4,545 nt of DNA from a virus (Duplodnaviria; Heunggongvirae; Uroviricota; Caudoviricetes), in the IMG/VR virus record IMGVR_UViG_2667528155_000011, positions 1 to 4,545 of that record; one strand, given 5' to 3'. Shown here piece after piece: positions 1-4,545 of this stretch. The notes beneath the pieces are model-generated. The model was given only the letters and a program-made list of their open reading frames with translations. It searched no databases and was not told the DNA's origin. Made by a program: the position numbers and the translations under genes. Every line of letters begins with the position of its first letter. The first letter of the stretch is position 1.

Positions 1-2
1 GG

Positions 3-209
3 CGGTTTTAAACCACGTCGCTGATTATCTGACGCGTAGGCATAACGGAAATGGGCAATATCCGTCTCCAGTGCATTCCCCGCATCAGAGATAAGCGGCA
101 CACCAGAATAAGGATGCCGCCCACCAAACAAGACGTGAAAAATCAGCAACGCAAGGCCAAAATTATCGTGATTTTCTGTGCGTTCAAAGCCGACAAATGA
201 CGACAACCC
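3..209 (-). other. ORF fragment running off the left window edge, unknown function; weak resemblance to the C-lobe of a Ser/Thr protein kinase
   Basis: Minus-strand frame is open for ~69 codons from 209 to the window edge (...HDNFGLALLIFHVLFGGRHPYSGVPLISDAGNALETDIAHFRYAYASDNQRRGLKP). No convincing start codon or RBS. The stretch DNFGLALLIFHVLFGGRHPYSG loosely resembles kinase subdomain IX (D-x-W-S-x-G...L-x-G-x-x-P-F). Not in the supplied ORF track because it is edge-truncated. Confidence 0.2.
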
Positions 210-225
210 CCAGCTAGGCTGGGGG
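207..225. other. GC-rich hairpin (8-bp stem cccccagc / gctggggg, 3-nt loop), possibly a terminator-like structure at the IS200 left end
   Basis: Perfect inverted repeat 207-214 / 218-225 seen directly. Minus-strand flank is moderately T-rich (ttgtcgtcatttgtcggctttg); plus-strand flank is ttccggaaagc. IS200 is known to carry a terminator hairpin near its left end, but I cannot confirm this is it. Confidence 0.3.
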
Positions 226-263
226 TTCCGGAAAGCTTTCAGCTTTGAGGCCAGTTATTAAAA

Positions 264-333
264 CCCCTTTTGATTTGTTAAAACACCTTGCGGTCTGGCA
301 ACTGCAAGTGTCAAACAAGAAATCAAAAGGGGG
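264..333 (+). promoter_or_regulatory. Imperfect long inverted repeat pairing the tnpA Shine-Dalgarno region (IS200-type translational-control stem-loop)
   Basis: Left arm ccccttttgatttgtt (264-279) is complementary to aacaa(ga)aatcaaaagggg (314-333). The right arm contains the SD aaggggg (327-333), 5 nt before the tnpA ATG at 339. Matches the known IS200 arrangement in which a stem-loop occludes the RBS. Confidence 0.5.
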
Positions 334-338
334 TCCCA

Positions 339-527
339 ATGGGGAACGAAAAGAGCTTAGCGCACACACGATGGAACTGTAAATATCACATAGTTTTTGC
401 GCCAAAATACCGAAGACAAGTGTTCTACAGAGAGAAGCGTAGAGCAACAGGCAGTATTTTGAGAAAGCTGTGTGAGTGGAAAAGTGTACAGATTCTGGAA
501 GCTGAATACTGTGCAGATCATATCCAT
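339..527 (+). pseudogene. tnpA: IS200-family transposase TnpA, N-terminal 63 codons only
   Basis: Translation MGNEKSLAHTRWNCKYHIVFAPKYRRQVFYREKRRATGSILRKLCEWKSVQILEAEYCADHIH matches remembered IS200/IS1541 TnpA through the HxH motif. It then diverges (NNIYHHRGYGQKSG*) and lacks the catalytic-Tyr C-terminal region. The track ORF 288..572 starts upstream, but the SD-positioned ATG is at 339. Confidence 0.6.
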
Positions 528-894
528 AACAACATTTACCATCATCGCGGATATGGCCAAAAAAGTGGCTGAAGATGATGCAGAAGTCTCATCCATAACC
601 AAGCCGGGTGCAGAAATTCATGAGTCTTAGCCCACCTCTGGTGATATTAAACGTGCGCAGGGGGCATAACTGATTCTCGCCAATGGTATGAATCTGGAAT
701 TATGGTTCCAGCGCTTTTGCCAGCATCTCAATGAGGTTCCAGAGGTGATTGTCTCTTCGGGTGTGACACCGGTAGGGCTCACCAAAGGGCCCTATGAGGG
801 CAAACCTACCCCCCAATGCCTGGATGTCGCCAGATAACGCTCTGATTTACATTGTTAATATTCGTGATGCTTTAATAAAATACGATCCGGAAAA

Positions 895-969
895 TGAACT
901 GCCCGGGAATCCTGGAGACTAAACTCCCTGAGAAAGAGGTAAACAGGATGACTAAAAATACTCGTTTTC
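895..969 (+). mobile_element. IS3-family (IS629/IS1203-like) left terminus: terminal inverted repeat plus first 7 codons of orfA
   Basis: tgaactgcccgggaatcctggagactaaactccctgagaaagaggtaaacagg followed by ATG ACT AAA AAT ACT CGT TTT (MTKNTRF) at 948-968. This matches the remembered IS629-type IRL and OrfA N-terminus. Similarity ends at the nnn (970-972); downstream sequence is not IS629-like. Confidence 0.55.
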
Positions 970-1022
970 NNNCGCAAATTTCTCGCCCCTGACGATAGCC
1001 CGCCAGCCGCCTCGCTTCTCGC

Positions 1023-1412
1023 TCAATGGCGATACGCTGTGATGGCGGGATCTGCGGCCACAGCGGTTGCATGGTCACCCCGGTGGGATCGCGATAATCC
1101 ACCGCGTGAATCTTNNNTCTGCNGCAATNCCANNGCGNCCTGGCTATTGGGGGAAAAGTCTTTCAAACCAAGCTGTTTACAGTAAGCATCCCACCACCGG
1201 GAAAGAATCTGGTAGCGTCCAGCAGCCGTTGATTTAAGTTTTGGGTTTAGCGTGACAAGTTTGCGAGGATGATCGGAGTAATCAGTGAATAGCTCACCAC
1301 CTACAATAACGTCGTAGCCGTGATTGCGGGTTGGCTGTCGCCCGTTATCCGTTCCTTCTGACCACGCCAACATATCGAGGAAAGCTTTACGCTGAGGATT
1401 AAGATTTAGCAT
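1023..1412 (-). CDS. R: Phage endolysin, lambda R-type lytic transglycosylase; 3' end uncertain
   Basis: First ~100 residues ([91 protein letters not shown]...) are near-identical to remembered lambda R, including the catalytic-Glu motif AWSEGTD. ATG at 1412 is preceded by GGGGTG. Region 1115-1140 contains ambiguous bases and the C-terminal 29 residues diverge from lambda R; the ORF is 129 aa versus 158 in lambda. Confidence 0.75.
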
Positions 1413-1716
1413 TTTTCACCCCTGTCAGTCGTTCCCAGAAGTATGTCAGTGCAACCGAACCCATCGCACCACTAATCCCCGCTGTCGCGAGAATCATGTA
1501 AATACTGAATCCACTTTCGATACTGTTCAGGCCACCAATAACACCGGTGAATCCCGACACCACTATCTGAGCCAAAGCATTTATCCAGCTCCACGTTGCT
1601 TTACTCTGCTTCACATCTATCAGGTAGCGGACCAGACCGCCCCAACCTGCGATGATCAGCAAAACGAGCCAGAACGCTCCGGCAAGGCTCTCTTTTTCGT
1701 GCATATGAATAGCCAA
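1399..1716 (-). CDS. Putative holin (three hydrophobic segments, charged C-terminus), possible dual start TTG 1716 / ATG 1704
   Basis: 101-105 aa ORF directly upstream of and overlapping the endolysin start by 14 nt. Hydrophobic stretches AGAFWLVLLIIAGWGGLV, WINALAQIVVSGFTGVIGGL and FSIYMILATAGISGAMGSVALTYF, followed by the basic tail [11 protein letters not shown]. Family assignment is by position and topology, not by recognised sequence. Confidence 0.6.
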   Translation of the reverse strand: MAIHMHEKESLAGAFWLVLLIIAGWGGLVRYLIDVKQSKATWSWINALAQIVVSGFTGVIGGLNSIESGFSIYMILATAGISGAMGSVALTYFWERLTGVKNAKS

Positions 1717-1818
1717 TGTTTCGCCGCCGACAAAAGGCCGGGACGTTAAATGTCAGAAATCAGGCTCACGGGGTAATTTAACGACAAAGCACGGAGTTGA
1801 TGCTCCCCGCAAGCCTGG

Positions 1819-1844
1819 AATAAAAAAGCCAGCATGTAGCTGGC
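1819..1844 (-). terminator. Rho-independent terminator (tR'-like) in the Q-to-holin control region
   Basis: Minus strand reads GCCAGC-tacat-GCTGGC followed by TTTTTTATT (stem 1844..1828, U-tract 1827..1819). Confidence 0.6.
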
Positions 1845-1920
1845 AACAGAGGGTTAAGCAATATCAACTCAACAGCTGAAGACACCCTGGCTGGGGTACG
1901 TTGGAAGGATACTCACCGCC

Positions 1921-1958
1921 CAGAAACAGAAAAGCCCAAGGCTTTAAACCTCGGGCTT
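1921..1958 (-). terminator. Candidate hairpin plus U-rich tail (upstream member of a possible tandem terminator pair, or a leader RNA structure)
   Basis: Minus strand: aaagcc-ttg-ggcttt (or the longer aagccc...gggctt stem) followed by ttctgtttctg. Weaker than the 1819-1844 terminator. Confidence 0.35.
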
Positions 1959-2013
1959 GAATTTGGATTACTGCCAGTGCGTACAACATTGGCAAAATAT
2001 CAGATTTACATAA

Positions 2014-2042
2014 AATATATGATTTTTAATCCAGTTTTGCAA
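2014..2042 (-). promoter_or_regulatory. Candidate late promoter (PR'-like) overlapping the 3' end of the Q-position gene
   Basis: Minus strand: -35 TTGCAA (2042..2037), 17-bp spacer, -10 TATATT (2019..2014), predicted start ~2007. A -10-like GATATT and TTGCCA lie in the initial transcribed region (2001..1990), a possible sigma-dependent pause element as in lambdoid late promoters. An alternative weaker promoter is TTGCCA (1995..1990) / AGTAAT (1972..1967). Hexamer matching only. Confidence 0.35.
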
Positions 2043-2715
2043 TATCTTGCTGTGAAAATGTGGTCTTTTGTTTTGAACGTGTTTTCGTTAAAAGCAATAA
2101 AGCTTGGCTATCAAGCTGTAGAAAAATGTGCTTCATTGCAACCCAGCGTTCAGTAAATGTCTCAGACCAGTTTTTTGATGTCACTCCCACCAGTGATGCC
2201 AACTCCTGGTATTCATAGGTCTTACGCCCTGCCAGCTCGTTCTTCACATCCTGTGCCGCCAGCCAGATCAACTTCTTCAAACGTTCCAGTGTCTTACCTG
2301 CAATTTTCCTGGTACCCAACAGAGTCTTAAACTCGCTCCATGCCCACTGCGTTATGGTGACCTGATGTTCCCAGCGAACACTTTCGCTGTAACTCCACAG
2401 CAACCACGCTTTCTGATGTTCTTCGAGAGACAGAACCGCGCGGCGCCATGATGATGTTGAGAACTCGATCGGACTGACCAGGGCAATGGATGAGCCTTTC
2501 GCCCGTGACTGCTTACCGGGTATCGGCGGATTATCCAGCGTTATTAACCTGCCGGTCACTTCATCCAGAATGCGCGGTTTCTTTCGTTTGTATGTACCGG
2601 TATCAAATTGCGCATGCTCCTGCCAGGCCACCAACTGCCCTTTCGTCGCACCACTCAGATCGGCGGTGGCCACCATGAGCTGCTCGCGAACAAACTGTAA
2701 ATATTGGGTATTCAT
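2026..2715 (-). CDS. Putative late-gene antiterminator Q-like protein (assigned by synteny; family not recognised)
   Basis: 229-aa ORF with AGGAG 9 nt upstream of the ATG at 2715, coupled to ylcG by an ATGA overlap. It sits where quuD/Q sits in DLP12-like prophages, just upstream of the promoter/terminator region and lysis genes. It contains no cysteine, so it is not a zinc-finger Q-lambda type. Trp-rich, with a possible HTH near the C-terminus (YQELASLVGVTSKNWSETF). Confidence 0.45.
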   Translation of the reverse strand: MNTQYLQFVREQLMVATADLSGATKGQLVAWQEHAQFDTGTYKRKKPRILDEVTGRLITLDNPPIPGKQSRAKGSSIALVSPIEFSTSSWRRAVLSLEEHQKAWLLWSYSESVRWEHQVTITQWAWSEFKTLLGTRKIAGKTLERLKKLIWLAAQDVKNELAGRKTYEYQELASLVGVTSKNWSETFTERWVAMKHIFLQLDSQALLLLTKTRSKQKTTFSQQDIAKLD

Positions 2716-2852
2716 GCGGCCGCTCCTTTCAGTGTTTTGGCGTAATTTTTCAGTATTCGGTAATCAGTCACGACAGAACCGGAAAACCGGTACAACCGCA
2801 GGCGCATCCAGCGAAGGCGGAGGTGTTCTGTGATATAAGATTCAAACGTCAT
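2712..2852 (-). CDS. ylcG: Small 46-aa protein, YlcG-like (DLP12 ylcG position)
   Basis: ATG at 2852..2850 overlaps the rusA stop; its TGA overlaps the next ATG. Translation [46 protein letters not shown]. Size and position match ylcG downstream of rusA. Below the supplied ORF track's length cutoff. Confidence 0.5.
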
Positions 2853-3211
2853 TCGCCCTCCAGTTCTGTAATGGTCAGCTCCAGCTTCCCGCCTTTAACG
2901 ATCGGCATCTTCACAACGCGGTAATCAACAACCTGCGCATCATCCAGCCAGAAACCTGCTTTAGTAAGTGCGTCAAAAGCGGCTTTTTGCAGATTATCCA
3001 GGTCACGGCGACGGCGATCCGGCATGTGGCACTCAATGCGGATTTTCACTGGCATAGCCAGGCCGATATCCAGCATGGAGCCTTTGATGATTCGGGCGAC
3101 GTTATCGCGGTATGCTTGCCCCTCTGCGCTGATGTGCGTGCGCCCGCGATTATGGCGGTAATAGCGATTATTGCTCGGAGGCCAGGGTAATGTGATGCTG
3201 TAGGTATTCAC
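2849..3211 (-). CDS. rusA: Crossover junction endodeoxyribonuclease RusA (Holliday junction resolvase)
   Basis: 120 aa, [45 protein letters not shown]...[40 protein letters not shown]..., near-identical to remembered E. coli RusA including the acidic catalytic cluster. GTG start at 3211 overlaps the ybcO stop (GTGA). Confidence 0.9.
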
Positions 3212-3498
3212 GCCTTAATAACCCCCTCTTTCAGCCAGATAACCTGTGTTCTCGCCATACCTTCCAGCGCGCATTCTTTTGCATATCCAGCGTCAACAAA
3301 ATGCGTGCGACGGTCGATCTCGTCGTGACAGGCAGAACATGCAATGGTGGCAATAAGGTCTGGCAGTTTAATACCGGTGCCGCACAATCCAGCCAGCCGG
3401 ATATGTGCCAGTACAGACGTTTCAGAATTGCCATTACATACGCCAGGGATTCTTACCTGGCATTCCCGACCACGCGCTGCTTTTCTCAAATCAGCCAT
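3208..3498 (-). CDS. ybcO: YbcO-like prophage protein (DUF1364, putative nuclease with Cys cluster)
   Basis: 96 aa from the ATG at 3498, [96 protein letters not shown], with AGGAGG 6 nt upstream. The track's longer ORF begins at a TTG at 3537 with no RBS. Matches remembered DLP12 YbcO. Confidence 0.8.
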
Positions 3499-3661
3499 GA
3501 CTCCTCCTTGCTGCCAGTCGCAACCATTTTTTATCAACCAGGCTGGCGGTATATCCGAGCAGTGTTGGTATTTCGGATGGCTTCAGCTCAGGCTTACGCT
3601 TACGACGATTTGGTACTCTGTAGATGTGTCCGTTCATGACACGAATAAGCGGTGTAGCCAT
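3491..3661 (-). CDS. ninE: NinE-family protein (56 aa)
   Basis: ATG 3661..3659 overlaps the ybcN TAA (TAATG) and has AGGAGG upstream. Translation [56 protein letters not shown]. Its 3' end overlaps the ybcO start by 8 nt. Below the supplied ORF track's length cutoff. Confidence 0.75.
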   Translation of the reverse strand: MATPLIRVMNGHIYRVPNRRKRKPELKPSEIPTLLGYTASLVDKKWLRLAARRSHG

Positions 3662-4116
3662 TACGCCTCCTGCTTGTCGCGCAGCAGCTGGAACTCGCAG
3701 CTCTGCGGAATAGTCAGGTTGCAGCCAATATTCATCGCCCAGGCTTCAACCTTACACAGGAAGACATACATCTCTCCGGTATCAAGATCGGAGGTATGGC
3801 GTAACGACTGGATAGTAGTGATTTCGCCGGTTACGACATCAACCAGGTCCTTGGTTTCATAACCGAGGTATGTGTGTTTGAGAGCATCTTTTACCCATGC
3901 TGCGGTAGCGAACGATTTCCCCCTGCTGATGAGGTATTCACTGATTTCGCTGTACCACATATGGCTGAGTGCATTCTGGGAAAGACTGCGTTTCTCTCGC
4001 CACGGTTTAAGCACCATGCGAAAGCATTTGCCTTCCTCCAGATAAGGCTGGATCTGCTGGCCGATAGCGGTGAAGTTGCCGCGATGTAATTTGATGCCGT
4101 CTTGTGAGAGGTTCAC
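3661..4116 (-). CDS. ybcN: YbcN-like prophage protein (DLP12 ybcN family, reported DNA base-flipping protein; occupies the ninB position)
   Basis: 151 aa, [154 protein letters not shown] start at 4116 with GGAGGTG 5 nt upstream. Near-identical to remembered K-12 YbcN. Confidence 0.8.
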
Positions 4117-4237
4117 GCTTCACCTCCGCAGAGCTCAAACGCTAGATGCAAAGAATTGCAGGTGCATTTCTGCATCTGTGAAGGGAGAAGAGAGTTTGGA
4201 TTGTATGTGCGCATAAACGTCCCCGTTTAGCGCAGAA

Positions 4238-4266
4238 GTCACCGGAGTTGTTCAGGCTCCGGTGAC
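4238..4266. repeat. Perfect 10-bp inverted repeat (gtcaccggag / ctccggtgac) with 9-nt loop, between the ybcN start and the IS2 end
   Basis: Seen directly at 4238-4247 and 4257-4266. No strong U-tract on either strand. Could be a tR2-like terminator remnant upstream of the nin genes or a protein-binding palindrome. Confidence 0.4.
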
Positions 4267-4288
4267 ATAATTATGCCGTGTTGATTTC

Positions 4289-4545
4289 TAGACTGGCCCC
4301 CTGAATCTCCAGACAACCAGTATCACTTAAATAAGTGATAGTCTTAATACTAGTTTTTAGACTAGTCATTGGAGAACAGATGATTGATGTCTTAGGGCCG
4401 GAGAAACGCAGACGGCGTACCACACAGGAAAAGATCGCAATTGTTCAGCAGAGCTTTGAACCGGGGATGACGGTCTCCCTCGTTGCCCGGCAACATGGTG
4501 TAGCAGCCAGCCAGTTATTTCTCTGGCGTAAGCAATACCAGGAAG
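4289..4545 (+). mobile_element. IS2 left end (IRL onward), continuing past the right window edge
   Basis: tagactggccccctgaatctccagacaaccagtatcacttaaataagtgatagtcttaatactagtttttagactagtcattggagaacag matches the remembered IS2 left terminus and is followed by the insC start. Confidence 0.85.
4380..4545 (+). CDS. insC: IS2 transposase OrfA (InsC), N-terminal part, 3' partial at window edge
   Basis: ATG at 4380 with GGAG 6 nt upstream. Translation [55 protein letters not shown] matches remembered IS2 InsC. Confidence 0.85.

Follow-up and report, generated by a model that had tools for sequence, protein, structure and literature searches.

A probable chimeric contig behind an apparently truncated lambda-R-type endolysin gene in a DLP12-type prophage sequence

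The closest described lysis system to the locus considered here is the S-R-Rz-Rz1 cassette of phage lambda, whose endolysin R is a lytic transglycosylase (PDB 1AM7 and 3D3D). The locus lies in a 4,545-base stretch of viral DNA (the window; positions 1 to 4,545 of IMG/VR record IMGVR_UViG_2667528155_000011). Codons 1-100 of the endolysin gene in the window are of the R type, with the glutamate at residue 19 kept, and a closely matching public contig, L006, has a full-length R together with Rz, Rz1, and bor. As in lambda, the R gene of the window is directly downstream of, and overlaps, a holin gene, and both follow a gene for a Q antiterminator and a late-promoter/terminator region. In contrast to lambda, the last 58 codons of R and the Rz/Rz1 genes are replaced in the window by unrelated DNA, and the holin belongs to family PF16083 (LydA-like) rather than to the S family.

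Prophages of the DLP12/phage-82 type, with the gene order ybcN-ninE-ybcO-rusA-ylcG-Q-holin-R-Rz-bor, are nearer still. Window positions 1111-4288 have the same order and are 99.7-100% identical to the prophages of E. coli 7CC (L001) and of L006, and 93% identical to phage 82, but the window departs from the prophage at R codon 100/101. The lysis genes of DLP12 in K-12 are presumably of another type than those of the prophage found here. Past the departure the nearest described gene is hyfI, which encodes the hydrogenase-4 small subunit and is part of the hyf operon; positions 973-1114 are identical to hyfI codons 162-208. In contrast to the complete gene, the window holds 47 of the 252 codons and has neither hyfH nor hyfJ as a neighbor, and this hyfI is a stray fragment, not a gene.

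The remaining point of comparison is the misjoined draft contig with ambiguity codes. Like such contigs, the window combines unlinked segments, has joints inside genes and IS elements, and carries N's at positions where the parent sequences mismatch; unlike them, its overlaps are very short or weak (7 nt at one joint, and 29 nt at 62% identity at another). A literal reading of the window would give a cryptic prophage that is defective in lysis, lacks spanins, and has an endolysin with a novel C-terminus. The evidence reviewed below indicates that the window is very probably a chimeric contig, and that the apparent truncated endolysin is most likely an artefact.

BLAST of pieces of the window gives the following map, in which the two components of the plasmid-derived stretch are also listed separately.

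1..206, (-) strand: internal fragment of the chromosomal core gene yegI, 100% identical to yegI in many genomes
207..894, (+) strand: pAA-plasmid stretch, made up of the 5' part of IS200 and a sitA-like pseudogene fragment
339-527, (+) strand: truncated tnpA of IS200
526-895, (+) strand: sitA-like metal-transporter pseudogene fragment
895..969, (+) strand: left end of an IS3-family element, belonging to the pAA-plasmid stretch
970..972: NNN where the IS3-family fragment meets hyfI
973..1114, (-) strand: internal fragment of hyfI, codons 162-208, 100% identity
1115..1138: cluster of eight N's at the R/hyfI joint, inside the R end of the prophage segment
1111..1412, (-) strand: 5' two-thirds of the lambda-R-type endolysin gene, codons 1-100 plus 2 bases
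1399..1704, (-) strand: holin gene, 101 aa
1111..4288: DLP12-type prophage segment, 99.7% identity by BLAST
4289..4545, (+) strand: end of an IS66-family element, upstream of the ybcN-like gene

Four sources that are unlinked to one another, namely two genes of the chromosome, a virulence plasmid, and a prophage, thus meet within 1.1 kb.

The endolysin ORF (1023..1412, minus strand) encodes 129 aa and reaches its stop 29 aa short of the 158 residues of R. Searches of Pfam and NCBIfam return no family for R, even with the intact 158-aa protein as query, and membership is therefore judged against the sequence of the solved structure 1AM7. Residues 1-91 differ from lambda R at nine positions (approximately 90% identity), as read off the alignment of the identical protein from L006. 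The glutamate at residue 19, within the motif ...AWSEGTD..., aligns with E19 of 1AM7; this is presumably the catalytic residue of lambda R, and it is retained in the window ORF. Of the whole R fold of about 158 residues, codons 1-100 are represented in the window, and the 129-aa product as written would be without residues 101-158. The sequence-only reading of this DNA had described residues 1-100 as tracking lambda R; the homology is real, at about 90% identity, but the place of the break needs correcting. R-type DNA passes through the N cluster, with every called base matching R of L001 and L006 as far as 1111, so that R breaks at codon 100/101, after the cluster rather than before it. A megablast search with window 872-1720 as the query, covering 5,426 complete genomes of E. 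coli and 50,697 phage records (INPHARED), defines the same limit: the matches take in holin and endolysin, all of them end at 1118 or 1111, and none extends over the rest. R homology ends at the same positions in plasmids.

The last 29 residues of the ORF have no relation to R, in agreement with the earlier description of the tail as divergent. Positions 973-1114 match hyfI of many complete E. coli genomes at 100% identity, and the fragment shares the strand of R. When translated in the hyfI frame this stretch, which ends in ...GREIC, corresponds exactly to HyfI residues 162-208 (47 residues). A second ORF, 872..1102 on the minus strand, had been reported to stay open across the whole region; it does, and it is the true hyfI frame, giving HyfI residues 166-208. 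The divergent tail is hyfI DNA read in the R frame, out of its own frame, and ended by a chance stop. Because the stretch is hyfI DNA read out of frame, the RG...RGD spacing that the tail has in common with lambda R is a coincidence.

These results bear on the proposal that errors at 1115-1140, in the form of a frameshift and of miscalled or ambiguous bases, conceal an intact R. The N cluster does coincide with the loss of R likeness, and a second frame is open downstream of it. However, the nucleotide alignment of 973-1140 against relatives of lambda R, which had been put forward as a check, assigns the sequence to R as far as 1111 and the rest to hyfI. Positions 973-1110 have no real similarity to R in any reading frame and are 100% hyfI, and no correction of the N's restores R. 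With hyfI and no R frame beyond 1111, the proposal is refuted, and the chance that it could still hold is negligible.

Across the 4,545 bases, ambiguity is confined to 970-972, 1115-1117, 1123, 1129, 1133-1134, and 1138; the suspicion raised earlier about data quality at about 960-1150 was well placed. All 11 lie at the two joints that flank hyfI. At the R/hyfI joint the parents can be aligned with three 1-base gaps, and each of the eight N's then stands in a column where the parents differ:

R parent at the joint: CTT TAA TCTGC T GCAAT G CCA CT GCG T C
hyfI parent at the joint: CTT CTG T-TGC A GCAA- A CC- GA GCG C C
Window at the joint: CTT NNN TCTGC N GCAAT N CCA NN GCG N C

The called bases in the cluster are those common to both parents, and at the three 1-base gaps the R base is kept. 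The continuation of hyfI can be threaded through every called base of 1115-1139, without a mismatch, if three 1-base gaps are allowed. In a simulation that scored the called bases of 1115-1139 and allowed up to three 1-base gaps and no mismatches, one of 600,000 random 30-mers threaded likewise (about 2e-6). The joint between the IS3-family fragment and hyfI has the same character without gaps: the window reads TC NNN CG, the pAA parent TC CCC CG, and the hyfI parent TC GAT CG, so that all three N's are parent mismatches while the flanking TC and CG are common to both. With N's confined to joints and placed at columns of parent mismatch, the window has the first attribute of a chimera. The N's have the look of a consensus from two different, overlaid sequences and not of random poor sequence. 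As a general rule, where N's occur at a switch in homology and each N falls on a mismatch between the sources, an overlay should be suspected before biology is invoked.

The DNA beyond hyfI comes from a plasmid. Window 202-969 is contiguous over 768 nt and matches, at 99.9% identity, DNA that lies downstream of aggR on the pAA-type plasmids of enteroaggregative E. coli. The source is specific, as IS200 is found at 100% identity only in the pAA copy; the chromosomal IS200C copies are about 97.8% identical. This stretch of truncated IS200, sitA-like, and IS3-family sequences (positions 3001-3768 in L003) is conserved at 99.9-100% on many pAA-type plasmids, which suggests that the data came from an enteroaggregative E. 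coli. The only Rfam match in the window, a full-length match to the STnc490 model of an Hfq-binding sRNA (205-329, plus strand, 140.5 bits), covers the 5' region of the IS200 fragment.

In the IS3-family element the terminus is at 895 and transposase orfA starts at 948; the element is cut at 969, which is 75 nt inside it and after seven transposase codons (at codon 8). On pAA-type plasmids the transposase pseudogene runs on for about 400 nt and includes an IS3-type frameshift pseudoknot. At the other end of the plasmid stretch, yegI meets IS200 some 15 nt in from the left end of the element, off its terminus; the end of IS200 was placed by aligning independent IS200C copies beside icd, emrB, and plaP, which have about 15 nt more on the left. 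The yegI/IS200 joint shows a 2-nt AA overlap and no N's, and in none of the many genomes with 100% identical yegI does yegI run on into IS200. This joint supports the patchwork nature of the whole left 1.1 kb. A genuine insertion of IS200 into yegI followed by repeat-collapsed assembly was considered and rejected, given the position of the joint, some 15 nt into IS200, and the pAA-specific identity of the copy.

The three odd joints (yegI/IS200, IS3/hyfI, and hyfI/R) all connect internal sequence to internal sequence, and none is at an IS terminus. This is the evidence that decides on a second proposal from the sequence-only reading, in which R was truncated and the spanin genes were deleted through insertion or recombination of an IS3-family element at R. 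The left end of such an element is indeed 142 nt downstream of the break, and two further IS elements are present in the window. R, however, adjoins internal hyfI sequence and no IS end; the IS3-family fragment faces away from R, with its terminus at 895 and its cut 75 nt inside the element, and it is part of the contiguous 768-nt pAA stretch. The joint at R has no IS end or inverted repeat and no target-site duplication. IS-mediated truncation of R with loss of the spanins is contradicted by the map of segments and is very improbable. The observation from which it started is itself correct: no Rz/Rz1-like ORF is found downstream of R within the window, where hyfI, IS3, sitA-like, IS200, and yegI sequences are located instead, and the spanin arrangement of an Rz gene (PF03245) just downstream of R with an Rz1 gene embedded in its +1 frame is absent from the window.

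The odd joints were also sought in other collections. None of 5,426 E. coli genomes, 72,556 plasmids (PLSDB), and 50,697 phages (INPHARED) spans any of the three. Exact-pattern scans for two of them (hyfI/R and yegI/IS200), with N as a wildcard, show both to be absent from IMG/VR, JGI metagenomes, and species-representative genomes. The chimeric ORF, with its N's filled from the R parent, was compared as a protein with 5.8 billion protein clusters; 6,915 R homologues were found, none of which matches over the full length, and the best matches are ordinary 158-aa R proteins. The window therefore combines the other attributes of a chimera, loci that are unlinked and joints that are absent from independent assemblies. 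The protein-cluster matches include dozens of singleton R variants of 132-226 aa on ENA contigs of about 3.5 kb, which resemble error-rich assemblies of a lambda control amplicon for nanopore sequencing.

An intact version of the locus is known. An exact-protein lookup of the holin variant of the window leads to L006 (assembly GCA_000936455.1, contig CDRL01000143.1). Over window 1111-4545, L006 agrees at each of the 3,427 called bases and differs only at the eight N's. It goes on into an intact 158-aa R, then Rz with Rz1 embedded in it, bor, and the terminase genes. The L006 R protein aligns with lambda lysozyme 1AM7 over 158 of 158 residues (E 1.7e-99); Rz has 153 aa and matches PF03245 (E 9.9e-54); and Rz1 is a 60-aa ORF embedded in the +1 frame, with a lipobox-like ...LVVVGC motif. 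Rz and Rz1 are present in both L001 and L006. An uninterrupted R homologue of about 158 aa with recognizable Rz/Rz1 genes had been named as the finding that would overturn the picture of a lysis-defective prophage; it exists in L006, though not in the window itself.

The joint of the prophage with the IS66-family element (4288/4289) recurs base for base in L006, and its presence in an independent public contig shows that this joint is genuine. L001, which is without IS66, continues with prophage sequence past that point. The IS66-family insertion may serve as a lineage marker of the source strain. In two close relatives of the prophage, L004 and L005 (GCA_016669325.1 and an ENA metagenome scaffold), R has a C-to-T change at nt 202 that gives the nonsense mutation Q68*; the R gene is at 6293-6769 in each, and the window and L006 keep the intact CAG codon. 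Genuine inactivation of the same endolysin thus occurs in nature.

At 1111 the sequence jumps from prophage R into a piece of about 170 nt of the unlinked hyfI gene, and this piece is joined to the pAA-plasmid stretch and, beyond that, to the unlinked yegI. With its overlaid ends, the hyfI piece has about the size of a single short read and may have bridged two unrelated contig ends, with the disagreements in the overlaps written as N. The false join was most likely made in assembly, gap-filling, or consensus calling and not in the cell; a step of gap-filling, read-bridging, or scaffolding is a guess only. In the real locus R would be a lytic transglycosylase of the normal 158 aa, with Rz, its embedded Rz1, and bor after it.

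Several findings count against a chimera of this kind. Standard local alignment of the hyfI and R parents gives chance-level scores and does not pick the joint, and the overlaps (7 nt for IS3/hyfI, and 29 nt at 62% identity for hyfI/R) are too weak for an ordinary overlap assembler. Homology-driven false overlap was rejected as the specific cause on the strength of the same chance-level local alignments of hyfI with R. A chimera made by ligation of restriction fragments was likewise dropped; hyfI has GATC at 970-973, but inspection by eye gives no matching site in the partner or at the other joints. In addition, the microhomologies at the joints (AA, TC..CG, and TCTT) would also fit real illegitimate recombination.

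The last point leads to the alternative that the joints are real, in which the last third of R and the Rz/Rz1 genes were lost to filler DNA from hyfI and pAA through illegitimate, microhomology-mediated end joining, so that a prophage remnant defective in lysis was left; the N's would have come later, in consensus calling, from reads of the intact hyfI locus mis-mapped over the 142-nt fragment. Besides the short microhomologies at each joint, it can draw on the position of the N's, all of them just outside the hyfI fragment, where reads that extend past it from an intact hyfI copy would clash with the local sequence; on the adjacent pAA stretch, which shows that genuine patchworks of IS and gene fragments arise in these bacteria; and on the Q68* mutation in L004 and L005 as a genuine inactivation of the same R. 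It has to account, however, for four unlinked sources within 1.1 kb with no joint at an IS end, for the failure to find these joints in any collection searched, and for a contig, L006, that is identical at the called bases and has the intact locus. Furthermore, reads from the intact pAA IS3-family element should by the same logic cause ambiguity on the hyfI side of the 969/973 joint, yet none is seen there. Real joints are on balance unlikely. The fuller scenario, a double-strand break in R of a prophage of enteroaggregative E. coli that was repaired by end-joining with hyfI and pAA filler, at the cost of the endolysin and the spanins and with the N's as a later mapping artefact, is more doubtful still. 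If it were true, the patchwork would be a natural case in which bacterial end joining captured several filler fragments, plasmid DNA among them; even so, a real rearrangement would leave an inactive gene amid scrambled DNA and would imply no new function.

A chimeric contig remains the preferred explanation. The overlay pattern of the N's makes a computational join the most likely one, and we infer that the source strain of the window has the intact version of the locus and that the joins are computational; L006 need not be from the same strain as the source of the window. Most likely, neither the apparent truncation nor the loss of the spanins exists in any genome. The natural locus carries an ordinary lambda-type holin-R-Rz-Rz1-bor cassette, and the case is mainly one of quality control.

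The genuine part of the window is an ordinary DLP12/phage-82-type late region. The late-regulation block (2026..4116, minus strand) is of the DLP12/phage-82 type, as annotated from the 99.7% identical L001 and the gene calls of L004-L006, and the phage 82 record X92588 is 92.9% identical to it. Upstream of the holin it comprises the following genes.

3661-4116, (-) strand: ybcN-like gene
3491-3661, (-) strand: ninE
3208-3498, (-) strand: ybcO
2849-3211, (-) strand: rusA
2712-2852, (-) strand: ylcG
2026-2715, (-) strand: gene for antiterminator Q, PF06323, E 9.6e-97

The holin gene (1399..1704) overlaps the start of R. Its product matches Pfam PF16083 (E 3.6e-21), which places it in the LydA-like holin superfamily III and not in the lambda S type; it is annotated as a phage holin in the 99.7% identical prophage of E. 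coli 7CC, and the exact protein is found in natural DLP12-type prophages. The lysis cassette is in this respect a mosaic, with a LydA-type holin (PF16083) before a lambda-type R in place of the lambda S-type holin (PF05106). Relative to E. coli 7CC, the window has only two nonsynonymous changes, I60N in the holin (nt 1526) and P45L in YbcO (nt 3365).

A late-promoter-like site, TTGCAA-17-TATATT, is located at 2042..2014 on the minus strand, between Q and the holin gene, and is followed by two strong terminator-like hairpins at 1958..1932 and 1844..1828 on the same strand. The layout of 1828-2042 is as expected for a putative pR'/tR' region acted on by Q.
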